This document shows positions 6,658 to 53,200 of a stretch of 64,000 bases of DNA, one piece after another; the first letter of the stretch is position 1; every line of letters begins with the position of its first letter. Position numbers and translations under genes: made by a program. Below the pieces are notes generated by a model, which saw only the letters and a program-made list of their open reading frames with translations, did no database searches and was not told the origin of the DNA. This DNA comes from Octopus vulgaris. Lineage: Eukaryota. Location: contig OX597832.1 of the NCBI GenBank assembly GCA_951406725.2, forward strand, positions 66,526,001 through 66,590,000, in the 5' to 3' direction.

Positions 6658-7479
6658 TAACGACTGTGTGGTTTCTTTGTTAAACACGCACAAACACACG
6701 CTTTTAGATTATAAGTAGATAAAGAGGTTAATTTTCTTCTACGTAAACGTTCTATGCGATCGCTTCACATAGCCTAACATAACTTTCTCTATTTATTTTA
6801 CACGTGAATAGATTCTATCGCAGAGTTTACCTCCGAATGATTTAAATATGAAATCCCAAGTACATCTACTCTGTTTCATATGTACTGCATTAAAGTTGCA
6901 GTAATCTGGTTTCTATACTGAGAAATGCATCAATATGAAATTATTCAATGCACTGGAGAAGAATAATGTTTCTCAAAATTATATACTATTTAATTTCATT
7001 GCCTTACTGATGAATATTATGATCATCTTATTATATTTACTTAAAGATTTTGGTAGGTTTGATGCAGTGGTTCGATCTAATAACACAAGTTTAGTCTCTT
7101 ACTTAACCTAATATCAGTTCGAAGTTATATTTCTGCTGATATTTCACTTCAGTATATGCAGTGGTTTTTAGTAAGACTTACATGTGATTTTGTTATTGAA
7201 CATTGCATTTTAAATCATAACGGTTATCAGTGGGAAATGCTCACTGACGCATATGTCTCACAGTCATTTGCGATACTGAAAATAAATATCTGCGATACTG
7301 AAAATAAATATCTGATACATTTTCCACATGTCTTTCCGGATATGAGCTATTGGTGTTTATAGATCTATAGCATATCAATAATTGATCTCGTTGTACATTT
7401 AGCCATAATTACGATTTGCTATAATTAAGCCATATGTTCGTCTGATGCGGTTGCTATTATGCTAATATCAGTTCGTTTT

Positions 7480-8745
7480 GGGATTTGGCTTGCAAGATAC
7501 TTTATGTGAGTTCGTGTGTTGAAGCATATTCTGTTGTGTCTGGGGAGAGTTACTCTCTTTTAGTGCCTTAACACTCTCACCGGTAAAATTTCCACTTAAT
7601 TCCTACTGCATTTTTGCAAAATTTTCGTTGGTTCTTGCAACATTTTCAATAGTTCAAACTAATGAAAGGGTTACAAGACGCAACGAAAAGTTTAGAAAAA
7701 TAAAGAAAGAAATGAGTGGAAATTGTACCGGTGCATGTGTTAAATTATAAGGCACTAAAAGAGTATAGATGAGTTGCAAACTTGCAGTTGCAGCGCTAAT
7801 AATTAACTGGTAGTAGGAAGGTAAATGTGTAAAATAAGATGATGTTAGTGTTATGACATTAAAATGAAAATGGAAACAATTGTGAAAGGCAAGGCGTGAG
7901 AAATGGTAAGAGCAACGGAGAAAGTGGCTATGAATTGCGTTGAGAATGTTGTGGTTTGTGTGGAAATTAATTTTGGGTGTTCTTTTGTCAATGCATGGCT
8001 GTTCTGTCGTATAGATTGTATAGGGAAAGGGTTAATGTAAGAGCAATTGGATGAATTGCTTAGCTTTGTTTAGTGGTGCTCGTGGGGCAGAAGTTGCCTT
8101 TGATGCTGCATGTGAGTATAATAATGGTTATAAATAAGTTGGCAGGTCTGCAGGCCCGCCTGAAGGAAGAAGCAAAAAACACTGGTTAGTTTTAATGCGT
8201 GGTAGCAGCGTGTGCTAGAAATAACAGTGAAAAATTTCATAATTCCTTAGTGAAACGCGTGCAGTTGCATTTCTGAAAAAGGCTACGTACCGAATTCAAC
8301 AAAATGAATGAATGTGCTTTAGTTGATCAGTATTGCTTTGATAGAGCAATGTTGTGAAAGAGGAGACGAGAGCAATGGTAAGAAGAAAGGAGACAGTGAT
8401 TATGAATTGCGTTCCGAATGTTGTTTGTCGTATTCATAAGAAAGTAGACAGCTAGAAGAATGAAGAAAGATATCCGTGGTTCTATAGTGGTGTGGGGTCG
8501 TTTGAACTCTCCATACGCTAGGAAGGTTAGAGGTGCAGTGGATGACAATATATTTCACTTCACAATTTAGCATGTGGTTCATATATGTTATCATCTTTCA
8601 TTGCCCCGTCGCGAGAAGTAAGTTTTATTTGCCTACAGTGGTAATGAAATGAGAATGAAATGTAAGGGACAAGGTTTTGGAGATTCCGGTTGGAATGCAA
8701 GGCAGGTCTGAAAGGGTTCCCAACAGTTATTAATAGCAGTGGTAG
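7480..8745. mobile_element. Decayed Penelope-like remnant with inverted terminal segment
   Basis: Inverted repeat about 7548-7655 / 7659-7766; 7481-7526 is homologous to the reverse complement of 27510-27556, the end of the PLE at 26-27.5 kb. Confidence 0.5.
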
Positions 8746-19696: not shown

Positions 19697-19849
19697 TGAT
19701 TGATTGATTCCAGTTTCAGCTTATGAGCTGTGGCCATGCTGATATATATATATATACTATAAAATATATACTATAAAATTTATACTATAAAATTGGATTT
19801 AATCCTAAATCTCATTTTTCCCCGTAAGTTTGGATTTATACCCTAATAT

Positions 19850-19887
<38 letters not shown>

Positions 19888-19998
19888 ATGTGAGTGTGTG
19901 TGGGTATATATAAAATTATCACTTATATATATGTATATATTTATATATGATATAGATATATGTGAATGACTATGTATACATGTAAACATGTATAAAAT

Positions 19999-20392
19999 GA
20001 GTGGCTGTGTGGTAAGTAGCTTGCTTACCAACTACATGGTTCCGGGTTCAGTCCCACTGTGTGGCACCTTGGGCAAGTTTCTTCTACTATAGCCTCGGGC
20101 CGATCAAAGCCTTGTGAGTGGATTTAGTAGACGGAAACTGAAAGAAGCCCGTCGTATATATGTATATATATGTCTGCGTGTATGTTTGTGTGTCTGTGTT
20201 TGTCCCCTTAGCATTGCTTCACAACCGATGCTGGTGTGTCTATGTCCCCGTCACTTAGCGGTTCGGCAAAAAGGGACCGATAGAATAAATACTGAGCTTA
20301 CAAAGAATAAGTCCCGGGGTCGGTCGAGTTGCTCGATTAAAGGCGGTGCTCCAGCATGGCCGCAGTCAAATGACTGAAAAAAGTAAAAGAGT
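19999..20392 (+). mobile_element. tRNA-derived SINE (family A), well preserved
   Basis: GAGTGGCTGTGTGGTAAGTAGC..GGTTCAGTCCCAC head; 3' end GGCGGTGCTCCAGCATGGCCGCAGTCAAATGACTGAAA. Confidence 0.9.
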
Positions 20393-20393
20393 A

Positions 20394-20424
<31 letters not shown>

Positions 20425-20704
20425 TCAACAATTGAGGGTAAAATTAATTAATTATTAATCAATTTCACCAAGTATTCAGTATGTAAAGGGACCATTATAG
20501 GCGAATTCAAAATATTACATTATATATAAGGGCTTAGTAAAATAAATTACTTTGCCACATACTGAACTCATTAGAAATAGCAGCTAAAGAAATTTCTTCA
20601 GCTATTTCTAATACTTAAAGAAGATCTCTCTCAGATAGTGTTTGCCTAAACCAGCTCACAAAAGTATGGGGGAAAAAACATTAAAAAATCAAGTGCAAAG
20701 GTTA

Positions 20705-20760
20705 TTTGAGAACGTACGTTTCTAGATTAGTCAATTCGACATTTCTTTCTTCAGCTCAGA
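20705..20760 (-). ncRNA. Minimal type-I hammerhead ribozyme, copy 1
   Basis: RNA UCUGAG CUGAAGA [stem II AGA..GUC-GAAUU-GAC..UCU] GAAA C-GUAC-G UU^CUCAAA; stem I UGAG/CUCA; palindromic stem-loop III. Confidence 0.7.
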
Positions 20761-21261
20761 ATTCCTTGAATCGGATTTGGGAACACTGAAAGTCGGGAGC
20801 ATACCCTTTCGGCTTCTAATCACCTCTAGAATTCTGCTCGAACTAAAAGTGCTATCAAATTCGAATATGCAAGCGAAGAATTTCTGCTCTCCCCTTTCCA
20901 CCAGCGTGGGTTAAAATTGACAAACACCATGTATTAACGGTGAAAACCGCAGCATTTAGCAGAGAGAGATGAATTATAATTTCAACAATTGAGGGTAAAA
21001 TGAATTAATTATTAATCAATTTCACCAAGTATTCAGTATGTAAAGGGACCATTATAGGCGAATTCAAAATATTACATTATATATAAGGGCTTAGTAAAAT
21101 AAATTACTTTGCCATATACTGAACTCATTAGAAATAGCAGCTAAAGAAATTTCTTCAGCTATTTCTAATACTTAAAGAAGATCTCTCTCAGATAGTGTTT
21201 GCCTAAACCAGCTCACAAAAGTATGGGGGAAAAAACATTAAAAAATCAAGTGCAAAGGTTA

Positions 21262-21317
21262 TTTGAGAACGTACGTTTCTAGATTAGTCAATTCGACATT
21301 TCTTTCTTCAGCTCAGA
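21262..21317 (-). ncRNA. Minimal type-I hammerhead ribozyme, copy 2
   Basis: Identical to 20705-20760, 557 nt away. Confidence 0.7.
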
Positions 21318-21673
21318 ATTCCTTAAATCGGATTTGGGAACACTGAAAGTCGGGAGCATACCCTTTCGGCTTCTAATCACCTCTAGAATTCTGCTCGAAC
21401 TAAAAGTGTTATCAAATTCGAATATGCAAGCGAAGAATTTCTGCTCTCCCCTTTCCACCAGCGTGGGTTAAAATTGACAAACACCATGTATTTAATGTTT
21501 TTTCCCCCATGCTTTTGTGAGCTGGTTTAGGCAAACGCTATCTGAGAGAGATCTTCTTTAAGTATTAGAAATAGCTGAAGAAATTTCTTTAGCTGCTATT
21601 TCTAATGAGTTCAGTATATGGCAAATTAATTTATTTTACTAAGCCCTTATATATAATATATATATATATATAG

Positions 21674-21707
<34 letters not shown>

Positions 21708-21926
21708 GTGTGTGTGTACATACAAACATATATATATATATATATATATGCATATTGTATGCATGTCTACATGTATACCTAATCATACACATATATGTCT
21801 ATATCAAATATATATATATAAAACTCAACTTGTGTGTCTGTGTGTGCATCTGTGTGTGTGTCTGTGTGTTTAACTTTTGGATCTACCAAGTTTCATTATT
21901 AAGGATAGAAAGTAGTGTGTTGCAAA

Positions 21927-22300
21927 TCTCTATATATAAAGTTGAAGTTGTCTAAGTGTGGTAGGTTTGGTAGCCTTCAACTAACACTATCTCCTTCGAG
22001 ACCCTGCAGCGCAAGTTGAGCAAAATTAAGAGTATGATAGAAGAAGGCTTGCTCTTCATTCGGACCTTGTTAATACCCAGAATTATTTACATCAAAAAGG
22101 TCCTTTTTTTCTATGAAAGTCCCTATTTTTTACGATTTTTGACTGCTGTGTCACCATTTTTCGGTGTATTTCAACTGGAAAAATGTTGTTTAAATCCTAT
22201 TCACACTATTCGACCAGCTGATGTGAGCAAGCGACAATACGGCATTAGATTCACTTCAGAGACGCCTCTGTGTCTGTACAGTTTATAAAAATTATGAAAG
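21927..22300 (+). mobile_element. Probable Helitron 5' fragment
   Basis: A|TCTCTATATATAAAGTTGAAGTTGTCT start resembles the 5' ends at 59951 and 9061; no CTAG end found. Confidence 0.4.
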
Positions 22301-22486
22301 AAAATAGAATTCGCCTGACCTTATTCACTAAGACTTTTTCGATCCGTTGTGTATCGGTACGTCCTTGGGCTTGGAGATAATCTGCACCTACGATGCATCT
22401 AAGCTAAAAGGCACCGGTGCATAATGGGTCGAAATGATCGTAGGGAATAAAAAGTCTCGTGAATACCATTTTCTCTCACATATTTT

Positions 22487-22572
<86 letters not shown>

Positions 22573-22574
<2 letters not shown>

Positions 22575-23082
22575 ATCATTAATTAAAATCTTAGGGTAGC
22601 AAGAATATTCATCGAAAAATTCTTAGTTATCAGTGGTCTAGCGAGAAAGAAAAAAATAGTCAATAGACTATATATTATCCTAAGAAGAATACAGTGTACG
22701 TTCAAATACAAAAGGGATACCCGAAGAATAGGATATCTGACTCGCTAGAAAGAGCAGTTAAATCTCCAAGCCACTAATTTTTTATAATTCCGAAAGTGAT
22801 TGGAAAATCCTAGACCCTGCAAGATTTCTGCAGACTTAAATACAGACTGAAGTAAAATAATTTCAGTCTATATGTGGCACTGCTTTTTCAGTAGGTTGCC
22901 AGGACTAACCACATAGGCACGGAGCGATAAATAACCCGCCAGGTGACTACAGACTCTAATTTCTAGGATTAAGGTAAAAGTTTTATTTTCCAATCACTTT
23001 CGGAATTACAACAATTGGTGGCTTGGAGTTTTAACTGCTCTTTCTAGCGAGTCAGATATCCTATTCTTCGGGTATCTCTTTT

Positions 23083-23086
<4 letters not shown>
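22573..23086 (-). mobile_element. Fold-back pLTR-like element within (TA)n, carrying a mutated hammerhead (22809-22895)
   Basis: Inverted repeats about 22710-22808 / 22985-23082; minus strand CCUA CUGAAAA [GCAG..long hairpin..CUGC] GAAA UCUUGCAGGG UC^UAGG. Confidence 0.65.
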
Positions 23087-23158
<72 letters not shown>

Positions 23159-23161
<3 letters not shown>

Positions 23162-24730
23162 TCCCGGGTTGACTCGGGGTTAACCACAGTCAATAAGGTA
23201 CTCAATACATAGCAGAGTAAATTAATTTATTTTATAGAAGGAGCTTCTACAGGACTAGAACTGTTTCATTCAAAAGAAATCATCAGGAAGCTAGTAGACA
23301 AGAGTTGTTTTAGTATTTATACATTTAGGCAGGTTTAAATGGGTGGTGGTGGGGGACTTTTTTGGGGGGTAGGCATGGCGCAAAACTGTCATTATAAGGG
23401 GAGTGGTCAAAGGAATCGTTGGTAAAGTAGATAATAGAATAAATAAAAGAATAAAAAAATAAAATAAAAAGATAAAAAGATATAAATAGAAAAATAGGGT
23501 ATTAGGTAAGTAGGGAGACTCTCACTTGTACATCTACATATATATATATACACATATATACACCCGCATATTCACATATATCTATACATATACATACATA
23601 CCCACATATACATACATATATATATATACATACATACACATACATATACATATATATATACATACATATACATACATACATACACATACCAATGTACGTA
23701 CACACAGATACACATATACACACATATACATACATATATGTATACCCACTCGCACAAATATATACAAATGCATATACATGCACACACATACACACACATT
23801 TTTATTCTCTTATTTTAATTTTATTATTACTGCTTTTTGTTTATATCTTTATTTTTAATTTTATCTTGACCGGTCAATCGGTCTCAAGGGACGATCTAAA
23901 GATTCCGTTTATCTGTCTACTTACCTATACGAAGAACGCAGGCACTCACTCACGCCCACACACTCACACGTACACACACGTACGTGTTATATTCATACAC
24001 GCATACATCTACATACATTCACGTATATTCACATACACGCATACACATACATACCTCAACACACTCACAGAAGACTAGTCCATACATATACACTAATTAA
24101 TATATATACACATATACATATACACATACATACACATACATACACATACATACACATATACATATACATATATACATATATACTCATATACATATACATA
24201 CACATATACACTCATGCATATATACACACACACATACATATACATATACATATGCATATATATATATATATATAAAACGGGATACATGCATACTCAACTA
24301 ATAATAATAATAATAATAATGATGATAATAATAATAATAAAAATAATAAATATATATACGTGCAGTTACCCATTTTACAAACGGATACATACATATAAAC
24401 ATACCCATATATACCTATTTACACATATATATATATGTATATGTATGTATATATATATATGTATATGTGTGTATATATATGTATATATATATGTATATAT
24501 ATGTGTATATATATATATATGTATATATATATGTGTACGCTCGTGTGTTTAGGTATATGTAAGTATGTAGAGTTGTGTGTATGTGTATGTATGTATATAT
24601 ATATATATATATATATGTGAAGATGGGTATATACGTGTATGCTTATATGTATGTTTCCGACTGTACAAAGGGTAACTGCATGTGTATATATATCTATTAT
24701 TTATTATTCATTATTTATTACACGAGTATG
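23159..24730 (-). mobile_element. Penelope-like remnant starting at a (TA)n junction, with low-complexity body
   Basis: 23159-23292 is nearly identical to 30637-30771; diverged inverted pair 24361-24428 / 24613-24680. Right boundary uncertain. Confidence 0.55.
23242..23292 (-). ncRNA. Type-I hammerhead ribozyme with canonical core
   Basis: RNA AGCUUC CUGAUGA UUUC-UUUU-GAAU GAAA CAG-UUCUAGUC-CUG UA^GAAGCU: 6-bp stem I, full CUGAUGA/GAAA core, 3-bp stems II and III, GUA cleavage triplet. Confidence 0.85.
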
Positions 24731-25140
24731 CGTTTGTATGCATGTATGTATTTATGTATATAAGAAGGCGCGTGAGTGTGTGTATGTGTATGCATTTGTA
24801 TAAACATATGTATACATTTATGCATGTATGTGCTTGTGTGTATATATATGTGTGTATGTATGTATGTATATATATATATACACATATATATATATATGTG
24901 TATATGTGTGTGTGTATGTGTATATGTATATATATATATGTGTGTGTAATGTATATATAGATATATATATGTATATATATATATATATGTATATGTATGT
25001 GTATGTATGTGTATGTGTGTGTATGTGTATGTATGTATGTATATGTATGTGTATGTATGTGTAATGTGTGTGTATGTATGTGTATGTATGTGTATGTATG
25101 TATGTCTGTATATGTATATATATATGTATATGTATATATG

Positions 25141-25225
<85 letters not shown>

Positions 25226-26341
25226 ATATATATATATGTGTACAGAAATATCCTCTTACGGCTATCAGAGCACATTGTAATCAATTAGAAAGTAATGTAA
25301 TATGGAGTTTCCCTGTAACTAAAAATCCTGAATTTCCTATCGCTGAAAATATTTCATGTGCTACATGTAAACGATAAATTTAAAAGTTATGAAAGCTGAA
25401 TAGACCTTTACATAGCCAAGTGGCTTTCTTAAGGTTATGTAAGGAAATATGTTAGCACCAATATGTATGATCTGCATTATACAATGAAATTGGACAGTCA
25501 CAATTTGGTGCAAAGCAGGAAAGCTTGCTCGTCAAATCACCAACGCTTAGTGGTTGAACCAACAGTTCAGATTGAAATTTACTTACAATATATATTTTTG
25601 ATATATACTGTGTAAGGAAGGTTGAAATGGGCAAAATCTGATTAATTTGTTGAGTAAAAATAAAGATAGTTTGTACAGCTTCATATCAATTGAGTTAAAG
25701 GATTTGACACAATTTAAAAATTTGAATATCTTTAATATGAAATGAGAAAAATATGAACAGGGTCTGAAAATAGATAATACACATATTAAATAGCATAAAA
25801 ATATATAAAAATGTAAGTAGATGATATAAATTGATTTTTAACAAAAATAATGATGTAGATGGGTACATGTGTATCAAGACAATTCAAGTTTAATAATTAA
25901 TAATTAATTTAATAAAGACTGTGTGCTTTTTTGTCTGAGTGTATATATATATATATATATATATATTGTTATATTTATATATATGGTCATATTTCGGAAT
26001 GGTCATATTGCCAGTTTAGCCAATAAAAACACACGCACTATATATTTGGTGTTATTTTGCTTCAGTGATATTTAATTTTTACATTAATCTCAATCTTATT
26101 TCGGCCAAAGTTCTTTCGTCACTCTCCAGTGACCGCATCAGTGGTCCTTTGTTTTCTTCTCACCTATTTGTGTCTCTCCTTACTAACCGTCAGCCATTTT
26201 GTATTTCTATTGTATGTCTTCATTTGCGCATGCTTATATTTCTATGTGCGTCTATAAGGTTGTTGAAAAGCCAGGCAACCCTATCAAATCTATAATTGGT
26301 AGAACCTATCCTATTGCACTGTATGTAGATTTAGCCCACAA

Positions 26342-26545
26342 ACAAACTGTAAAGCCAGAAATGTAGTCTATAGTATAAGATGTATAGAGGGACGATGCAG
26401 TAACAAGACAGTAATGTACGTAGGGGAAACAGCAAGAAGCATAGGAGAGCGGGTGAATGAACATTGGAGACAACTCAAGGAAGGTAAAAGCTCATCGATT
26501 CTGTACCAACACGCCGAACAGGAACACGGGGGTAGTCTATTGTGA
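26342..26545 (+). pseudogene. GIY-YIG endonuclease fragment of a Penelope-like element
   Basis: Manual translation TNCKARNVVYSIRCIEGRCSNKTVMYVGETARSIGERVNEHWRQLKEGKSSSILYQHAEQEH fits the PLE pattern VVY..C..C..YVGET.R...R..EH. Confidence 0.85.
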
Positions 26546-27325
26546 CCTTAATACTCTGGTGGATGGAGTTAGCTATTTGCTGGATGCTCTCCATAGTATT
26601 AGTTTCTATTACTATATCAACATTACTCTCTTGTGGGGGTGCCTTTACTACTATATTGATATCATCAACATAGCGAGAGTACATGTTTACGAGTATGGAT
26701 TTCTGCAGTAGGCATTCTTTAAGCATTCTGTCCCACCATACCATGAAAAGGTTGGCCACATCACCAGCGATACTAACACCCTCGTCCTGGGCATATATTT
26801 TATTATTAAATTTAAATGTGTGGCCTCTTAGGGTAACTCTTATACTAGCTCCTAGTGCATGTGCGATCATTTTCTTTACTTGATGGACATTTGTGGGGCT
26901 CCGTATGGCTCTGGTCCATCCGCGCCATCTTTCTATATGTGGCTTCCTAGCCATAGAAGTAATTGTAGGCGGTCTACCTTTTTAAACATCTACTGGGGCA
27001 GAAACTACTAAGATTATGTTTATCTAAGTATTCATTATTATATGTAAGTCTAAGTAGGAGGCCCAGTTCTTCTGTGTCGACATTACAGAACTCCACCTGG
27101 CTCTCGTTGATCATCTCCACGCACTTCTCCAGTGCAAAATCTACGTCAATCGATGGGTATAGGGATACCACATCCATGCTACCTACTATACATCCTGTCG
27201 AGTCACAAGTTTTGTTACAGTCACTGATCCTACTTAGGAGATCTTCTGTGCTGTCACACAAATCAGGTGACATCCTGATTATAGGGCGTATGATCATTGA
27301 GAGGAAGTAGGAGATTCTGTAAAAT
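26530..27325 (-). pseudogene. Penelope-like reverse transcriptase fragment
   Basis: ORFs 26974..27426 and 26475..26954 contain GSMDVVSLYPSID, FKFNNKIYAQDEG, VANLFM and YSRYVDDI; split by a stop codon. Confidence 0.85.
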
Positions 27326-27343
27326 TGGTGAGAAGAAAACAAA

Positions 27344-27389
27344 GGACCACTGATGCGGTCACAGGAGTGTGACGAAAGAACTTTGGCCG
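27344..27389 (+). ncRNA. Hammerhead-like motif with variant core (second copy 26102-26147 on minus)
   Basis: GGACCA CUGAUGC G GUCAC-AGGAGU-GUGAC GAAA G-AA-C UU^UGGCCG; 5-bp stem II, stem I CCA/UGG, A9 replaced. Confidence 0.5.
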
Positions 27390-27563
27390 AAATAATATTG
27401 AGATTAATGTAAAAAATAAATATCACTGAAGCAAAATAACACCAAATATATAGTGCGTGTATTTTTATTGGCTAAACTGGCAATATGACCATTCCGAAAT
27501 ATAACAATATCTGTTTCAACACACGACTTCACATAAAAAATCTTGCACAACAAATATTTAAAC

Positions 27564-27629
<66 letters not shown>

Positions 27630-30600
27630 GTAGTTATGCGTGAATATGTGGGGGATGTACGTATGTCTGAGCGTGATTGTTGGTAGTTTTCCTTCCGTGT
27701 ATGTCTGTGTTCTATGCTTTAAACCAGTTCTATGCACTGGAATATATATTTGGATCGTTGTTAATGTACGGGTAAAATTTTTAAATGTCCAAGTGCTCTT
27801 TTTAGGTTTTCGCAACATTGGTAACCTCTTTTAAAAGTTTACAGTTGTTGATTGGTGTTACGCTTCATTTTGGATTAAAACATAAAAGATCACGTGACGT
27901 GTTAAAGTAACGCGAGACTGCGTAACGAAACAAATATAAATGCAAACAACTCCATTTGTTGAAGTTTAGTTTTATTTCGATTCGATTCAAGTTTTTGATA
28001 AAGGAAGAGAGCAATCCAAAATTGTTTCAGCTGAAATTTGATTGTTTACTCAAAACCTCACGTTATTCTATCATGATCTTACGTGATCTGCCTTGTTTTA
28101 ATCAAAAATGGAAACGAATATTGAAGTTCCATGTGACAGGTTCAATTACCTTTGAAGGAAATTCCCTTAACATAAATCAAATGATAGCCTTAATCCATTA
28201 AGAAAGAAATTTTATCTACCAATTAGCTTTGGGCAGTCGTTCGTTATTAACACACACACGTATGTATATATATATGTTTACATTCATGTGTGTTTGCGTG
28301 TGTGTGTGCGCGTTAACCTATAGAAAACTGCCTCTAATCCGTCACGATGGGGATGTTGTTTTGCTGAATTCTACTTAGAATATTCTGCCTGAAAATTGTT
28401 TCAAAATAATGGTAACCAATATATGTACTAAATTATCTTCAGATGAGTATTTTACATGGTGTTTGCCCCTTTTAGACGTACATATTCCCGTATTGCTGAA
28501 TTATATATAACAAGTTAAAGAATCTACCGTAAGCGGAAATGGCACCATTAAAACTTTCGTAACAATGATATTTTCCAACGTCAGGATATGTTTTTAATGA
28601 GTGTCACGAAATAAAATCACCGACAACTGCAGATAAAATCTCACCTACACCACCTGCAAACTAGACTGTATTTATTCAGTGTTGCAAATGCTGAAAGTCC
28701 AATCCAAAACTCAGCAGTGTCTAGCAGGTCTCTGAAAGATGCTCGCCTCACAGATGTCAGACGAATATTTGTCCCTTGCTAAAGCGGTTCCCTACGAGCG
28801 ATAAAATATTATTTGGTTTTCGGAAAATTCGTAATAATTGTGAGTCGATAAGAAGACATCTTTCTGATTTACCAGCCAAATTAAAATCAACTTTTTGCTG
28901 CACCAACTATTTAAATCCTTTACAAAAGACTTGACGCGAACAACGTGTGCACTAGTGCATCTAGAGTCACCAAGTTCTTCAACCGGAAACCTGAACGTTT
29001 CAGACCACAAACTCTCCATTTTTACGAATGTTCCTTTCGATGCCCCTAAATAATGTACTCCATAGATGACACCTCTCCTCACCTAACATTCCTATCACAT
29101 TCTTTAAAGGATTATCTTATTTCCAATAAGAGCCACCCCCACAACATATATTTTCTCGCACTATTACTATCATCATCAATCTCGCAAAAATATAACAGTC
29201 ATGGCTAAGGACCTATCCCAATATATTCATTCTCTCAACCTTTAGTTTCAATAGATACCTACATAGGAGTGACCACTAAGGCCAAGAAATTTCTATTGGG
29301 AATCTACTCATCTGTTACAGATACCAATAGGCTTACACGCAAATGATTCAGAAGATATATTTCTAAATTCTATGAAAATAGAATTGCTACCATCTGACAA
29401 AGCAAAATTGAATGCCTATGGTGTCCACTTGACTTGCTTTTCTCGTATCAGTAACTTCATGTCACTCGAATGTAGGAGTTGACACATTTTATTAGCTCTG
29501 TCATCTCTTTCCGTCGAATACCCTCCCTCTCTTCTTTCTCTACAAGAATGCAATATATGTTTTGATTTTGATCTTAGCTATTGAAGAATTATACTAGTTT
29601 CTCCTATATCACTATATCCGGAATTAAATGTAGAAACAATCACTTATCTTCGTAACAACTATTGATCGTTACGCCTGCAGAGCGTGACATTGATCAGCTT
29701 CAAATTTGAAACAAGTTGATTTATTCTTGAAGAAGACGAATCGTGTAAAATTTTAAGAAGGACTCTTCAATGGAGTAATGTTTTCATTGTACATATCGAA
29801 TTTAATTGATTGGGATTATAAAGGTGCAGGCAATAAATAACAGATAAACTGATAACTGGAAAAGAAGATGATTATAAATTCATAAAATACATGTAGATAG
29901 AAAAGAGAGAGAGAGAGAGAGAGATAGACAGTGCTAGATAGCTAGACAGAGTGAGAGGAGGGGAGAAATAAAAGACATGGGAGAGAGCGAAAGGAACGGA
30001 AGGGCAAAAGAGATATTAGAGAACAGACAAATATCAAAAAGGCGATCTCAATGTAGATGTGGGGTCAGTGATCGAATCGTGATATGAAACGCGAAAACGC
30101 ATCAACAACGAAAATGAAGAAGTTAGTTACTAGAATCAAAGAAACGATATCTCTCAATAGGGAGAGCGGCTGTAAGTTAGTGGAAGCTTTATAAAATATG
30201 ACAACTGTATTTAGCAGTAGCAGCTTTGAGTAATATTCGTGTCAGAGATCTAGAAATTATTAATCAATATATTTTAGTAATTTCTTTATATTCTGGGTGA
30301 AATTGCCTTACCAACATACATACCAACAATAAATAATTAGATAATGAATGTCTACTAATTACTATCGTTGTCTTTTTACATACACAAAGTTGCCTAGTTT
30401 CGTATAGTATGTTTACTTGTGTCCACTTTACAATTATTTGACAGGTTTTATACAATCAAACGCTTAAAAGGTGACGCGCATGAAGTGTCCGCTGGCCGTT
30501 CGTCATCAATGTAAATGTACATACATAGAAACATACACGCATACCTCTAATTACACACACAAACAAGTTTATGTCCGAGGAACTATCAATCTATCTATCT

Positions 30601-30720
30601 ATCCATCTGTATATATATATATATATATATATATGTAGGTCCCGGGTTGATTCGGGGTTAACCACAGTAAATAAGGTACTCAATACATAGTAGAGTAAAA
30701 TTAATTTATTATATAGAAGG

Positions 30721-30771
30721 AGCTTCTACAGGACTAGAACTGTTTCATTCAAGAGAAATCTTCAGGAAGCT
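30721..30771 (-). ncRNA. Type-I hammerhead ribozyme (CUGAAGA core)
   Basis: AGCUUC CUGAAGA UUUC-UCUU-GAAU GAAA CAG-UUCUAGUC-CUG UA^GAAGCU. Confidence 0.8.
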
Positions 30772-30818
30772 CCCTGAAGATTTCTCTTGAATGAAACAGT
30801 TCTAGTCCTGTAGAAGCT
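30768..30818 (+). ncRNA. Type-I hammerhead ribozyme, mirror copy
   Basis: AGCUCC CUGAAGA UUUC-UCUU-GAAU GAAA CAG-UUCUAGUC-CUG UA^GAAGCU; one mismatch in stem I. Confidence 0.7.
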
Positions 30819-30829
30819 CCTTCTATATA

Positions 30830-30870
<41 letters not shown>

Positions 30871-32268: not shown

Positions 32269-32295
<27 letters not shown>

Positions 32296-32299
<4 letters not shown>

Positions 32300-34311
32300 T
32301 ATGTTTGACTTTTGCTTTATGTCTGTACAAGTTGGCTCCAAGTCTCACCCAGAGACCTCAAGAGACAACAGGTTGGAAGTTCTGTGCCATATATTTGGGG
32401 GGGGGTTGTGTTGTACTAGTGAATGTCTAATACAGAAAAATAAAATTTTAAAAACATAAATAAATAAATAAAAGAAAAAGTTTGTTTTAAACCTTGGGAT
32501 TACATAGAGAATATTTTGCGTAGGATATGAGCAGTTCCCATGAGCACTATCTTTTGAATTTCTGCCATTTGGGGGTTTCCTGGTATCTGAGTTAGGTAGC
32601 AATCAGTCCCTTTCGCTATCATTCCCAGGGTACCTATGACAACAGGTATTGTTTTAGTCTTCAGCTTCCACATTTTGCTGATTTCTATTTCAAGATCTTT
32701 ATATTTGCTCAGTTTTTGGTAGGTCTTGACAGATACGTTTATATCGATTGCGACTGTCATATCAATGAGCAGGCATGTTCTTTGTCCGAAGTCTTTCAAT
32801 ATGATGTCTGGCCTATTTGCATCTATCTTCCTGTCAGTTTGAATGGTGAAGTTCCAGAGGAGTGAGATGTGGTCATTTTCAAGCACTGGAGGTGGATTGT
32901 GTTCCCACCAGTTTTTTTTATGGGGCAAATCCAGGTTTTTGCAAATTACCCAGTGAATATATTGTGCAGCTCTATCATGCCTGTTGAGGTATTCTGTAGG
33001 CGCTAGAAGACTGCATTTGGAGACAACATGATCAATGGTTTCATTTTGTTGTCGGCATACACTACATGTTGGGCTACTGCCGTTCTTTAATATGTTGGCC
33101 TGGTAGTTTCTTGTTGGTAGGCATTGATCTTGAGCTGCTATGTTAAACCCCGCTGTTTCAGATTTTAAGCCAGAGGCCATTAGCCATTGATGGGTCAGGG
33201 CTTTGTCAATATCTGCATTATTCGCTCTCTTTGGGTATTTGCCATAGAGAGGTTTTTCGTGCCATTTATTATTCAGAATATCTAAGGCCGCAGTTTTGGT
33301 ACGGGTTTTCATGCGCCTAGATTTTTCTGTGCTTGTTTCTTGTATGTCTATCTCTAATTCCGAAATTGGCTGTATTCGGAATTCACTTAGATATTCCTTT
33401 GCCTGTTTTGTTACTGAGTATGATGCTTTCTTGTTTTAATGTTTTTAGACAAGTTTTAACATCCAGTCCTCAGAGTTTTTCAGGTAGGTGTCTAGGCCAA
33501 TTGTAGCAATCTTCATTGTTATTGCCAGTTGCTAAAGACCACGGCCTCCCACTTTTCTTGACAGATATAGTCGTTCTGTATCTGCCTTATGGTGGTGCAT
33601 TCTATGCATTGTCAACAGTTTCCTTATTTTTCTGTCGAGCTGACATATTTCAGTAATTGACCAGTTAACAATATTGAAACTGTAAGTCACGACTGGTATG
33701 GCTAATGCATTGATCGCTTCGATCCTGTTTCTTGCATTCAGCTCTGTCTTGAGTATTGGTCTCACTCTTCGATAGCATTTTCTCCTGATCCTTTCCTTCA
33801 TCTCTGAATGCCTTATTCTGTTCCCTTCACTTACCCCTAGGTACTTGTAGCTCTCCGCTGGGTCTAGTTCTTTTATGACATTCTGCTGGTCAAGGTTAAC
33901 ATTAGATGCTTCTGTCATTTTTCCTTTGATAAAGGTAGCTTTTGCACATTTATCGAGGCCGAATTTCATTCTGATGTCGTCACTGAATTGTTTGACTATC
34001 GCTAGTAAGCCCTTGAGTTGTTGGTCATTTTTTGCAAAAAGATTTAAATCATCCATGTAAATGAGATGATTTATATTTTTATCAAACATTTTATACCCGT
34101 ACTGCGCGTCATTGAGCAGCTTTGAGAGAGGTATTAAAGATAAACAAAAGAGGAGTGGTGACAGTGAGTCACCCTGGAAAATGCCACACGAAATTTTTAC
34201 ATCACCAGCATTTAGGGTTTCATTGTCACTGTTCAGAATTAGTGTGGTTCTCCATGATCTCATACTTACAGTCAAGAAGTTTCGCAGAGTAGGTGCTATC
34301 TTATAAATTTC

Positions 34312-41450: not shown

Positions 41451-44045
41451 AGAACACAAGACAATCAGTTTTTTGTTCATGTAAAAGTCAGGAAATAAGC
41501 TGACAGCCACGAAAGTGGCACACTTTAACAGAAGCGATAAAATCTCGTATGGTACAGCCACATATACACCGATACGACGCCCTTTCGAAAACTATCATTC
41601 AGGGTATAGTTACTGAGGACCGAAGATGAGGCAGCTAGATATAAACCGGATGTGGCAACATCACAAACTGAGAGGTTTCAACATCTCTTCTGTGTGTGAC
41701 ACTACAGGTAGAATTAGTGATTGTGTACTTCCAAAACTACTAGCATGGCGGATGGTTTGATGTGCCGGACACAGGGAGTGGAATATGATACGCTATAAAT
41801 TGTTGCTGAGTTAGGTATTAGATAGACATCGAAACGTAATTAGTAGTATAAAATGTCTAGTTTACGAAGTGCTATGAGATGGCTCGTGTTTATAAAGTGT
41901 GGTGAAAACCCTCCTTAAATTCACATCCTTTGATAAACATCTAAAGTGCAAATATGCACGAAGCGCACTGGTCGAAACACTGATGAGAACTGAAATAAAG
42001 AATGGAACATTAGTTACAAAAAGACAGCATTACCGCTTGCCAAAGTTTCCTATCGTTACAAAATAGCTGTCTAAATTATAAGAGGTTCCTTTTATGTTGT
42101 AGTTGTTAATTTATAGATGCACATGTTCAAATATATGCGTGATAACAAGACGTGTCTCCCTCTTCAAGGACAGAATATACAACTGTTCGCAACAGTAACT
42201 AACACATTACAAAACGTGCTGGATATATAATAATGGGCCCCTCCCATGTATTGGTTAGTATGTTTCGTACAAACACACGCAACAGAGACAGCATGGAAGA
42301 AAATAAAGTAGGACTACTGAGAGCGTATAAATTTCTTCTCCAGGGAAAGCTGACTCCTCACAGTTTTTGTTACGCAAGCACGGAGACATGATGCTAATTT
42401 TGTTTTGGCATTCCCTACTTCCTTTTCGTCTTGCATTCAAGAATATTTCCTTCATATTAAAAACTGTAACCACTGTGCCCTCTCATAGCAACCGCATCTA
42501 ACCAGTCATTGACATTTTTTACCCCTACCTCAATTTCCTATCTTTCAAAAGGATCTATGTCTCTGTTAGTCTCACCTGCATCGAGTTCTGAATATCATGG
42601 ATCCATATCCCGATCTTTCAACTAAATTAATGAAAACAATATGAAACGGAAGAAATATTACAGTAGGTTTGTTATGGCCCACTGAAAATTTTAGAATGGA
42701 TTTTTTTCACTAAAATCGGTACTGATAAATTAGATCTATGAAGAAAGGTTGTACGCCCGTGACGATCACTTTGTTAAGAATGGTATATCTAGGGCTACGT
42801 TAACTCATATTTTTCAGATTTTTAAAAGAGTAATCTGTAATCTTAAGAGGATTTTATTTGGTTGTTGTTGTTGCTTCAACTTAAATATCTCTGAATGAAC
42901 ATGGCTATCTCTAGCAGCATACCAATAATGACCATCCTGTCGATTGAGGCTCTTACGTATTTATTACCAAATTCTTCTTCCTTTGCAACGAAAACAAAAC
43001 CCATTTGATCACAAAACCATACTGTTTATTAGAAACCATAGAGATTATTCGAAGGGATCTTTGACTGTTATGCTTAGTAAATCATTTTACCATATACAGG
43101 ATCCTTTGTTCAGACAAATATAAATGTTAGATGAATGGAACAGAAAACTCAGCGAAATTTAACCTCACCACTTCAATATCTTTCAGTACTCTGCTCTGCA
43201 GTTAATATCTTAAGTGTATTCACTCGTATGACAGCATGAAATTGATTGAATGACAAAAGGTTCAATTTACAGCTACATAATATAGTAGGCAACATTTTCA
43301 AGTAAAAATAAACACAGCAGTTTCTTTTCGAAACACGATAGATCTCTGTAAATAATTAATTTAGGAGAAAATACGATATAAGCCTGATGCAGGTAGAAAA
43401 GTTGATAAGCAGAAGATTGATTTAACTCGTAGGAAATGCATAGTTTATTTTCGGAAACTAATTACTGAATTCAAATTTCACTCGCTAATTTAATGAGTAT
43501 TTTATGATGATTAAGTTTCTCTTTTATATTTTATCATCTCAACGCTAAGGAATATTCGTATACGTGGGAAACAGAATAAATCCTTTCTATGTTACTAAAG
43601 TTTCTATCTTTCATTTTTATGCATATATCTTTATCATATTATTGTTCTAGAAGTTGAGTTTGCTGTGATTTCTTTTCGGGTGAGCAGTTTCGGTTCTGTA
43701 CCAATCAATGTAATTCTTATCACTTATTTCACAAACATATGCGAAATTTATCCGAGTCATTTCACTTCAATTTTTCTCATGAAATATTCAAAAACAGGTG
43801 GAATCTATGAAGGGTGTTTGGTGACAAAAACAGGAGATCCCAAACTTTTTCCTCTTGCCCTATGACGCTCACAGATTTTGCTCAATCCTAGAGTCTTTTA
43901 TCGAAGCTAAGATAAAATAACATCCTCACAAGATGTCACAAACTAGTATCGAAAACGCGTGCTCTTGCGAGCGAAGTAAACTTATTATTCAATCGGCCAT
44001 GCTACGTCTGTATTCATAATATATTTCCACATGTATTCACGCATA

Positions 44046-45311
44046 CGAGGGGCGTTCAATAAGTAATGCCCCTGACCCACTTCCCATAGCAATAGAGCAA
44101 CGAAACTTGGCACAGGTATTAGTCTTTTTCTACATAGGAACAACCCAGAGGTACACATTTCTCCCATCGTTTGATGCAGTTCTGGAGACCGTTTTCGTAG
44201 AAGACCCCAGCTTGGTCCTCCAACCACGACGTGACTTCAAAAATCAAGGCTGCATCATCTGGGAAACGCTTTCCTTTCAAAAACAACTTAATGGCTGGGA
44301 AGAGGTGAAAATCAGAGGGTGCAAGGTCAGGAGAGTAGGGGGATGGGGGAAGAGTTCATAGCCGCACGCCTGTGCTTCTGATCTGGCGACACGCGAGTTG
44401 TGGACCGGAGCGTTGTCCTGCAGGAGGAGGACGCCTTTGCTGATCTTGCCCCGTCTCTTGGTTTCGATAGCTTCTCTTAATTTCCTCAAAAGTGAAACAT
44501 GATAGGCTCCTGTAATTGTGGTACCCTTTGCCAGGAAATCTGTCATCACTACTCCGTCCAGGTCCCAGAAGACTGTGAGCATGACCTTGCCAGCGGAGGG
44601 CTGCACCCTTGCCTTCTTTGGAGGAGGTGAGTCATGGTGCTTCCACTGCATTGACTGGGCTTTGGTCTCTGGATCATAGTGATGGACCCAGGTTTTATTC
44701 TATGCAATCAGTCTTTTGAAAAAATTTGACTCATCTTCTTGGCACATCCCTAAATTCTTGCTTCTGGAATTCTTGCGTTCTTGCTTCTGGAAAAGTGTGA
44801 GCAACCTGGAAATCCATCTGGCAGAAACCTTTTGCATATGCAAATGGTCATGAATGATAGTTTCCACAGACCCGGTACTAATCTTGACCTCATGGGCTAT
44901 TTGGCGAATAGTTATGCGTCGATCTTCCAAAATGGCAGCCTCAACTTGACGGACAGATGCCTCATCAATGGCAGAAGGGGTGCGACCAGATCTGGGAGCT
45001 GTTTCCACAGAGTTCCGACCATGTTTGAATACACGATGCCAGCGTTTTACAAGGTCATATGATGGGGCATCATCACCATAAGTTACTTTCATTTCATTAA
45101 AAGTCTCCTGTGGTGTGCGTCATTTCAAATACAAAACCCGGATCACTGCTCGACACTCAACATGCTCCATTTCCCACTTGACTCATTTAAAACACCTGTA
45201 AATTAATTTGCCACTTAATCTATAGAGATATAAATAATTGCACATGCAAAATTTCAGCTAGATCAAACAAAGGCAAGTGGGTCAGAGGCATTACTTATTG
45301 AACGCTCCTCG
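44046..45311 (-). mobile_element. Full-length mariner transposon with frameshifted transposase
   Basis: TA TSDs (44044-45, 45312-13); TIRs CGAGGGGCGTTCAATAAGTAATGCCCCTGACCCACTT; ORF pieces with HTH (VKRWHRVFK.GR), KVSARWI, KVMLTVFWD, QDNAPVH and a frameshifted YSPDLAPSDF. Confidence 0.95.
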
Positions 45312-45583
45312 TATTTAAGAGACTGTGAGAAAAATATCTATGTAGAAATCACTGACGAAAAAAGACAAGTAATATAAAGAGATACTGTTGTTGATATTTT
45401 GTTTGGCTACGGTTAGGGGTCACCTCCTTGGTCTTCTGGAAAGACTTCACCACTATGCAAATATACCATCACTATGAACATGTACTCTTCCGTTTATGCA
45501 TTTATCCTAGAACTGAAACTCGTACACACAGAGGCACACACAAACACTCTCACAAAAAAATTAATAATAATGAAAATTAAGAT

Positions 45584-50735: not shown

Positions 50736-50825
50736 AATAATAATAAAAATAATTAGAAGAAGAAGAAGAAGAAGAAGAAGAAGAAGAAGAAGAAGAAGAA
50801 GAAGAAGAAGAAGAAGAAGAAGAAG

Positions 50826-51827
50826 CATGAAAGCCCGTGCTACAACTGCTTCCTTAGATATTCTGAATAATAAATGACAAGAAAAACCTCTCTATGGCAA
50901 ATGCCCAAAAAGAGCGAATAATGCAGATGTTGACGAAACCCTGACCCATCAATGGCTAATGGCCTCTGGCTTAAAATCTGAAACAGAAGGGTTTATTATG
51001 GCAGCTCAAAATCAATGCCTACGAACAAGGAACTACCCGGCCAATATATTAAAGATCAGCAGTAGCCCAACATGTCATGTATGTCAACAACAAAATGAAA
51101 CCATTGACCATGTTGTCTCCAAGTGCAGACGTCTAGCGCCTACAGAGTACCTCAACAGGCATGATAGAACTGCAGAATATATTCACTGAGTAATCTGCAA
51201 AAACCTGGATTTGCTCCATGAAAAAAACTGGTGGGAACACAAACCACATCCAGTGCTTGAAAATGACCACATCTCACTCCTCTGGAACTTCCCCATTCAC
51301 ACTGACAGAAAGATAGATGCAAATAGTCGAGACATCATATCGAAAGACTTCAAACAAAGATCATGCCTCCTCATTGATATGACTGTCCCAATCGATATAA
51401 ACGTATCTGCCAAGACCTACCAAAAACTGAGCAAATATAAAGATCTTGAAATAGAAATCAGCAAAATGTGGAACCTCAAGACTAAAAGAAAACCTGTTGT
51501 CATAGGTACCCTGGGAATGATAGCAAAAGGGGCTGATCGCTACCTAACTCAGATACCAGGAAACCCCAAAATGACAGTAATTCAAAAGATAGTGCTCATG
51601 GGAACTGCTCATATCCTACGCAAAATACTTTCTATGTAACCTCAAGTTTTAAAACAAACAATTTTCGTATGCTTTTTTAGGCATTCACTAGTACAACACT
51701 AAGTACAAAACCAAATATATGGCCCCCTAGGCATAACACCAACATGAACTTCCAACTTGTTGTCTCTTCAGGTCTCTGGGTGAGACTTGGAACCAGCTTG
51801 TGCAAATGTAAAGCAAAAGTCAAACAT

Positions 51828-51829
<2 letters not shown>
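50826..51829 (+). pseudogene. 3' fragment of an R4/Dong-like LINE, same subfamily as 32296-34313
   Basis: ORFs 50959..51189 and 51211..51639 are nearly identical in protein to 32500..33312; shared 3' UTR; (TAA)n tail. Confidence 0.9.
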
Positions 51830-51911
<82 letters not shown>

Positions 51912-53010: not shown

Positions 53011-53012
53011 TG

Positions 53013-53200
53013 CGTGTGTGTGCTTGTGTGTTTGTGTTTGTCCCCCACCATCGCTTGACAACCGATGTTGGCGTGTTCACATGCCCGATATAATAAGTAC
53101 CAGGCTTCCAAAGAATAAGTCGTGGGGTCGAATATTTCGACTGAAAGACAGTGCTCCGGCATGGCCGCAGTCAAATGACTGAAACAAATAAAAGAACGAA
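53013..53200 (+). mobile_element. SINE family A, 3' half
   Basis: GTTTGTCCCCCACCATCGCTTGACAACCGATG..GCATGGCCGCAGTCAAATGACTGAAAC. Confidence 0.8.

Follow-up and report, generated by a model that had tools for sequence, protein, structure and literature searches.

What kind of element, moved by which proteins, could place several unrelated fold-back insertions inside TA microsatellites within about 10 kb of one another? The question is raised by positions 20,423 to 30,835 of a 64,000-nucleotide stretch of Octopus vulgaris DNA, here called the window (GenBank assembly GCA_951406725.2, contig OX597832.1, positions 66,526,001 to 66,590,000, forward strand). A first-pass annotation had described in it four families, A to D, each flanked by TA, built of tandem and/or inverted terminal repeats and carrying a hammerhead ribozyme motif, and had taken them for Penelope-like elements (PLEs) and retrozymes that target TA repeats. 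Our analysis indicates that the region very probably holds five separate insertions, some of PLEs with coding copies elsewhere (C and D) and the others of non-coding retrozymes (A and B) likely using the same proteins. What is new in detail is the asymmetry of insertions with two ends: in nearly all of them, those of retrozymes too, a long end is paired with a short one.

Pairwise comparison of A, B, C and D found no mutual likeness beyond short AT-rich words. When the 2.8-Gb assembly was searched, all four proved dispersed, multicopy and mostly young, and the description of four sequence-unrelated families holds. The first-look candidates, which are not copy numbers, came to 1963 for A, 1641 for B, 771 for C, 207 for the D end and 1265 for the D reverse transcriptase (RT). 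The best genome copies of A, C and D were 93-100% identical; for those of B, identity was 79-89% when the full query was aligned and ~94% in its terminal part. For the termini we used the best 30 loci per search, not a random draw, and merged overlapping loci before counting. A (TA)n flank was present at 40/44 distinct termini of A, 29/42 of B, 58/64 of C and 57/64 of D, as compared with 3.6-7.5% of background positions, and self-comparison of the window recovered the tandem and inverted arms as described. The TA flanks averaged 33 nt per side and 67 nt for left and right together (n = 76 two-ended insertions), nearly twice the 36 nt of the length-weighted background TA array, a background that includes split arrays. 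Flanks shorter than 8 nt occurred in 9/152; any target-site duplication would be hidden in (TA)n, and the counts are compatible with duplication. The large flanks could result from target duplication, from a strong preference for long arrays or from TA synthesis. TA length did not differ between long and short ends (P=0.34). Inverted ends and TA flanks are also shown by fold-back DNA transposons or miniature inverted-repeat transposable elements that have terminal inverted repeats and target TA. The inverted arms here, however, are of variable length, truncated at the 5' end and set apart by a tail, and the linked open reading frames (ORFs) encode an RT and a GIY-YIG domain, not a transposase. 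The RT-linked full-length copies of C and D largely refute such an origin, to which we give almost no credence.

In each family the insertion ends fell at two positions, 55-100 nt apart. Among 82 two-ended insertions, 80 combined one long end with one short end and the other two were short/short. When the count was repeated on more loci, with B left out, it was 76/78, the remainder being one short/short and one long/long insertion. For families D and E, whose queries lacked the tail, the count was 27/28 (about 1e-7, calculated by hand, if ends were independent and 50:50). Family E (L261-L290) is a second, very young Hydra-clade family, 43% identical to C and with an A.A hammerhead; ~720-aa open frames were present in most of its 63 scored copies, its ends were TA-flanked in 35/35 and lay at +4 or -66/-68, and its full-ORF arm ended either way, long or short. 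In A and its sister family A' the tail lay on the longer arm in 22/27 insertions, a count we disregard, as long tailed arms are favoured by the queries themselves.

How might such paired ends arise? For a PLE in vitro, both strands are cut and extended, with two internal RNA start sites bounding the tail (PMC11167929; published sources are cited here and below for the parts compared). The occurrence of one long and one short end in retrozymes ties their integration to this two-start-site mechanism, and since A, A', B and the retrozyme at L221 follow the same end rule, they were likely inserted by PLE proteins. We propose that a PLE protein with RT and GIY-YIG endonuclease (EN), probably as a dimer, would nick both strands of a (TA)n array, whereupon each 3' end would prime reverse transcription on the element RNA. 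One strand would start at the downstream site, giving the long, tailed end, and the other 55-100 nt upstream, giving the short end; the two cDNAs would then be joined head to head to leave a fold-back with one tail. A and B would have lost the ORF, kept the terminal RNA and been copied in trans. The hammerheads are predicted to cut multimeric transcripts, with that of A probably dimerising by way of its palindromic stem III, and they may be dispensable for insertion.

The hammerheads could have a larger part in the life of A and B. In the Cervera model both would need hammerhead cleavage and circularisation, with monomer circles as templates on which rolling-circle reverse transcription makes arrays. 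This differs from the course proposed above only in the template, and integration by PLE proteins is still compatible with it. Arrays of about five A units (L037-L039), a core kept in 52/52 A copies and canonical motifs in A' and L221 would suit circular templates, and circular RNAs have been shown for coral, mussel and axolotl retrozymes (PMC7229834). Against this, the insertion ends of A and A' lie 180-300 nt from the predicted cleavage site, tandem genomic copies would yield multimeric templates without circles, and hammerhead mutants had no effect on insertion in vitro (PMC11167929). We hold circular templates to be a real possibility, though not the one we would choose.

Of the two retrozymes of the window, the family A insertion (20423..21665, minus strand), delimited by self-comparison and genome copies, comprises a 557-bp unit (20423-20979), a partial unit (20980-21492) and an inverted arm (21491-21665). 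Its left end is long and tailed; its right end is short, 89 nt earlier in the RNA. The type-I motif at 20707..20758 (minus) has the core CUGAAGA, A.A at 10.1/11.1, a palindromic stem III and the predicted site GUU, and a second copy at 21264..21315 (minus), in the next tandem unit, is a possible dimer partner. The older, non-coding family B insertion (22572..23085, minus) holds less than one ~480-bp unit and an inverted arm (22985-23082), and its hammerhead region (22809..22895, minus) has a long stem II and a broken core, CUGAAAA. The TA tract at 23086-23159 is common to this insertion and the neighbouring one of C. The GC content of the units is 34-35% (34-37% with A' included), and the longest stop-free frame in A and B is 62-67 aa (62 aa in A). 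A profile search of A, A' and B gave no coding remnants; its positive control failed too, so that the search was insensitive. The A unit was covered in 30/30 bins in 4/4 sequencing-run contig sets, which cannot show expression, ends or strand.

Two further retrozymes were seen beyond the window. A' (L191-L220; L151:2926-4003) is a 586-bp tandem retrozyme, ~70% identical to A over the 3' part; its hammerhead is canonical, its stem II region measures 61 nt, and at L151 a single TA tract lies between it and a C copy. The second, a retrozyme of 359 bp, was found blind (L221:2098-4766); it has a long tandem arm and an inverted arm, with five and two motifs, a canonical hammerhead, TA at both ends, and one long and one short end.

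A and B were likely moved in trans by PLE proteins. The helpers are more likely to be Hydra-clade proteins than proteins of the D type, because the 1x1 mismatch of A and B at 10.1/11.1 is a design common to the autonomous Hydra families C and E and to published Hydra hammerheads, and because a chain of tail similarities through intermediate families, itself a weak link, reaches E and not D. The earlier idea that short non-coding members are mobilised in trans thus fits A and B; it does not extend to C, which has copies with an ORF of ~715 aa.

The C insertion in the window (23160..25242, minus) is a 5'-truncated Hydra-clade PLE, with the terminal repeat and a microsatellite-rich 3' untranslated region (UTR). 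Its inverted UTR arm (~24430-25242) stops short of the element end, at a boundary made uncertain by low complexity. The motif at 23242..23292 (minus) has the core CUGAUGA, U.U at 10.1/11.1 and the predicted site GUA, in the style of the Hydra clade (PMC8557442). The second C insertion (30637..30835, no strand assigned) is a 199-bp fold-back, long end left and short end right, whose motif (30721..30771, minus) is a CUGAAGA variant. At L156 the same end runs through a ~3.1-kb microsatellite-rich 3' UTR into an ORF, and full-length copies encode ~715 aa with Hydra-clade motifs: RWR at 39, DKT at 117, CxCX5C at 568, CxxC at 668 and CxH at 696. The spacing from motif A to YxDD is 96 aa, and there is no insertion-in-fingers. 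Since the longer copies lead into a Hydra-clade ORF, C is autonomous, contrary to its earlier grouping as non-coding. Judged by motifs, not by a tree, C is the 3' end of an autonomous Hydra-clade PLE.

Family D is the one that had been credited with PLE RT and GIY-YIG sequence, and fragments of both were found. The window copy (25981..27565, no strand assigned) is a fragment of an autonomous Nematis-like PLE, rearranged at three inversion junctions; its left end is short, and its right end is long, with a 55-nt tail and the first ~30 ORF codons. Minimal hammerhead-like motifs lie at 26102..26147 (minus; variant core CUGAUGC plus an extra G, predicted site CUU) and at 27344..27389 (plus). Between them are an incomplete GIY-YIG fragment (26256..26539, plus), supported by tblastn to the full D protein P0001 and by a Pfam GIY-YIG match at E=2e-4, just under the cut-off, and an incomplete, frameshifted RT fragment (26546..27321, minus) running from motif A to YVDD. 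Copies elsewhere have intact ORFs of 1310-1312 aa, RT followed by a C-terminal GIY-YIG (full copy L141:3442-7380, P0001). Pfam gave no score for the full D protein, and its matches on the window fragments were sub-threshold. The predicted fold (predicted local distance difference test, 89) had telomerase RTs as its two best PDB matches, as expected for a PLE, and the closest database protein, 98% identical, is labelled Octopus vulgaris. The D motif lies on the ORF strand, and the pseudo-long terminal repeat (pseudo-LTR) overlaps the ORF start.

The EN linker spacing of D is of the Nematis type, in the short form of the CX2-5CxxC pattern, as judged by eye against the alignment rows of PMC8557442, with CCHH in the EN. 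Motif A to YxDD spans 171-176 aa in D and its homologues (31/53 proteins with both motifs matched), and the no-insertion-in-fingers feature of Nematis is absent. Because of this long span (173, against 96 in C) D is called Nematis-like only, and we assign it by motifs, not by a tree, as an autonomous Nematis-like PLE family. D as Naiad was rejected, since its EN is C-terminal. The EN pattern was also matched in 20/30 D homologues matching both RT motifs. In D and the homologues P0124-P0175 the RT is longer by ~80 residues at the site of the insertion-in-fingers, and a Nematis-type EN stands at the C-terminus; D and its relatives are possibly an unnamed PLE lineage. In both C and D, a partial tandem pseudo-LTR, an inverted 5'-truncated copy and a tail at one end are all present, as is a single ORF with telomerase-like RT and GIY-YIG endonuclease. 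Together with clade features published in PMC8557442, these data support both the PLE/retrozyme identity and the TA targeting.

Are the motifs true hammerheads? We used a strict and a relaxed type-I descriptor, both tuned after the motifs had been seen. The strict one matched the window 4 times, at two motifs each of A and C, where 60 shuffles averaged 0.017; the relaxed one also took in two motifs of D, giving 6 against 0.33. Core conservation differed among families. CUGA(A/C)GA was found in every one of the A copies and CUGAUGA in 39/39 C copies; CUGANGA was kept in 20/24 B copies, not including that of the window; and D had C at position 9 (C9; core CUGAUGC) in 36/37 copies, which departs from CUGANGA. 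A CUGANGA core in all four families, as first described, is therefore right for A and C, partly so for D and wrong for the window B copy. No Rfam hammerhead model matched the window copies of A-D or appeared among the 150 of 189 matches listed in the whole-window scan; the best hits were chance microRNA hairpins. A' matched Rfam Hammerhead_1 (RF00163) below threshold (21.1 bits against a gathering score of 34, E=0.0074). A aligns with A', whose motif is canonical, and the stem I changes between them are compensatory. This homology is the best evidence for the A motif as a true hammerhead homologue. We had considered odd 10.1/11.1 pairs a sign of decay and dropped the idea, as the published Hydra motif table shows the same. 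The 265 motifs with downstream TA, from all retrieved loci, fell into 27 sequence clusters.

Several results weigh against the account as a whole. The end rule has exceptions of both kinds, short/short as well as long/long (L295), and, as the tail formed part of the queries for A, B, C and A', one long end was favoured in advance, though long/long insertions were still detectable. No autonomous parent of A or B emerged from two protein searches, which gave only D and the Hydra family E; the ends of E did not match A or B by BLAST, and direct tail likeness to E was absent for A and marginal for B (17-21/400 shuffles scored as high). Covariation in B did not exceed chance, 139/500 shuffles being as good; copies of A and C are too young for covariation testing. 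As a monomer, A is predicted to have a lowest-energy fold other than the hammerhead; co-folding of two A motifs pairs their palindromes.

Might the hammerheads of the window families then be inactive relics, merely carried along in the terminal repeat? The C9 of D, the broken core of the window B copy, the chance-level covariation of B and the absence of an Rfam match in the window would agree with that, and only 1/9 retrozyme dimers tested cleaved (bioRxiv 10.64898/2026.07.22.740005). Yet the motif lies on the sense strand and near the 3' end in 27 clusters whose flanks are unrelated, and the unusual 10.1/11.1 pair and the GUA/GUU sites are the published Hydra norm (PMC8557442). We consider the relic explanation doubtful and regard the A and C motifs as type-I hammerhead motifs of the published Hydra style, for which cleavage is predicted.

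Does the close spacing of the five insertions need an explanation of its own? We sampled 22 large contigs of the assembly blind, at round coordinates, taking 40 stretches of 10 kb (400 kb). In these the strict descriptor detected 22 motifs at 13 loci, as compared with 0-2 in 15 shuffles; extrapolated from this 400-kb sample, there would be ~31 loci/Mb, or ~88,000 genome-wide (45,000-152,000). A special hotspot or one compound element could be suggested by the 10.4-kb cluster, which has 3 strict loci against 0.34 expected (P=0.005, uncorrected) and a 10-kb clump in which TA arrays number 14, where the mean for 10 kb is 7.1. The region was, however, chosen for its density, and the window as a whole is at the genome mean, with 3 loci against 2.1 expected (P=0.34). 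Moreover, 2/40 blind stretches already had 2 loci, and copies of each family are scattered over many chromosomes and have unrelated neighbours. We judge a hotspot or compound element very improbable: clumping is confined to the 10-kb scale, and the cluster is not a special system, such elements occurring throughout the genome. The local clumping would follow TA density, each insertion leaving two TA flanks and the C UTR carrying more. With separate insertions of PLEs and retrozymes as the preferred reading, we mention a bolder extension that we hold unlikely as a whole. PLE integration would be a coordinated two-primer reaction with obligatory different start sites, duplicating or extending (TA)n; some 100,000 hammerhead-bearing PLE/retrozyme loci of dozens of families would both feed on and build the TA load; and D would be an undescribed marine C-terminal-EN PLE lineage with a telomerase-sized RT-fingers insertion.

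Other repeats lie nearby. Window positions 19755-19855 are the TA-flanked end of a further family and match the 3' end of an element at L284 that carries a hammerhead. An old remnant at 7461-7553 resembles the start of a D-like ORF (64% over 31 aa) and adjoins an imperfect inverted repeat (7555-7763). One very common short repeat has copies at 19997-20390, 1931-2137 and 53011-53195, and is presumably the octopus short interspersed element. A ~1.27-kb TA-flanked element with 43-bp terminal inverted repeats (44043-45314) probably belongs to the Tc1/mariner type of DNA transposon. The ~1-kb sequences at 32269-33314 and 50825-51859 are two copies, 86% identical and in opposite orientation, that end in (TAA)n and are probably 3' ends of a long interspersed element.

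How much of this is new? Tandem and inverted structure, tails often at one end only and (TA)n targeting are described in PMC8557442, where one of the Hydra families listed comes from octopus and has (TA)n as its target. For O. vulgaris, Bonar 2026 (PMC13282606) reports 31 PLE families active recently and, in the part compared, does not mention ribozymes. Li 2026 (bioRxiv 10.64898/2026.07.22.740005) argues that retrozymes derive from PLE terminal repeats. Literature searched by title and start of abstract showed no octopus hammerhead census and no strict one-tail rule; Repbase, Dfam and subscription papers lay outside that search, and the A-D families may already be named elsewhere. The literature compared also includes Cervera 2014 (PMC4209133) and a review (PMC6765202). 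Specialists would not be surprised by the finding as stated, since elements of this kind are already published; the octopus families are further members, apparently very abundant here. Reported hammerhead counts, obtained with differing descriptors, are up to 120,000 in axolotl, ~9,000 in Xenopus, >6,000 in coral and ~5,000 in mussel; ~90,000 loci would rank near the top of these, in a genome about one-tenth the size of the axolotl's. The full PLE integration signature on non-coding retrozymes is sequence evidence for the proposed PLE-retrozyme partnership, the near-strict long/short rule narrows what the second, still unsolved step of PLE integration can be, and intact young ORFs from three families are available for in vitro work on the end rule.

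Set beside known systems, each group has a close counterpart. A, A' and B resemble non-LTR retrozymes (PMC7229834; bioRxiv 10.64898/2026.07.22.740005) in their non-coding, low-GC tandem units, in a type-I hammerhead per unit and in co-occurring PLEs. They differ in unit size, 480-590 bp being at the large end, and in bearing the marks of PLE integration, namely an inverted arm, a tail on one side and a TA target, which are undescribed in the Cervera and Li passages compared. C shares with Hydra-clade PLEs (PMC8557442) RW(K/R), DKT, YRDD, the CxCX5C linker, CxxC, CxH and a C-terminal EN, as well as the (TA)n target, U.U at 10.1/11.1 and the GUA site. Hydra elements are generally under 3 kb, a typical and not a defining feature, whereas C exceeds 5 kb with its long 3' UTR; the protein start of Hydra-1_Obim from Octopus bimaculoides is, by eye, unlike that of C. 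D agrees with Nematis/Neptune-clade PLEs in RT followed by a C-terminal GIY-YIG, in the CX4CxxC linker with short Nematis spacing, in the CCHH residues, in the pseudo-LTR overlapping the ORF start and in a minimal hammerhead that has one more base following position 9; the C9 of its core is different. The end rule itself is best compared with the Poseidon element PAc (PMC11167929), which likewise has two internal RT start sites bounding the tail, an AT-rich target and extension of both strands. Its tails are 30-40 nt, as compared with 55-100 nt in octopus, and in vitro its strands showed no difference in start site, whereas the octopus insertions almost always pair the two sites.

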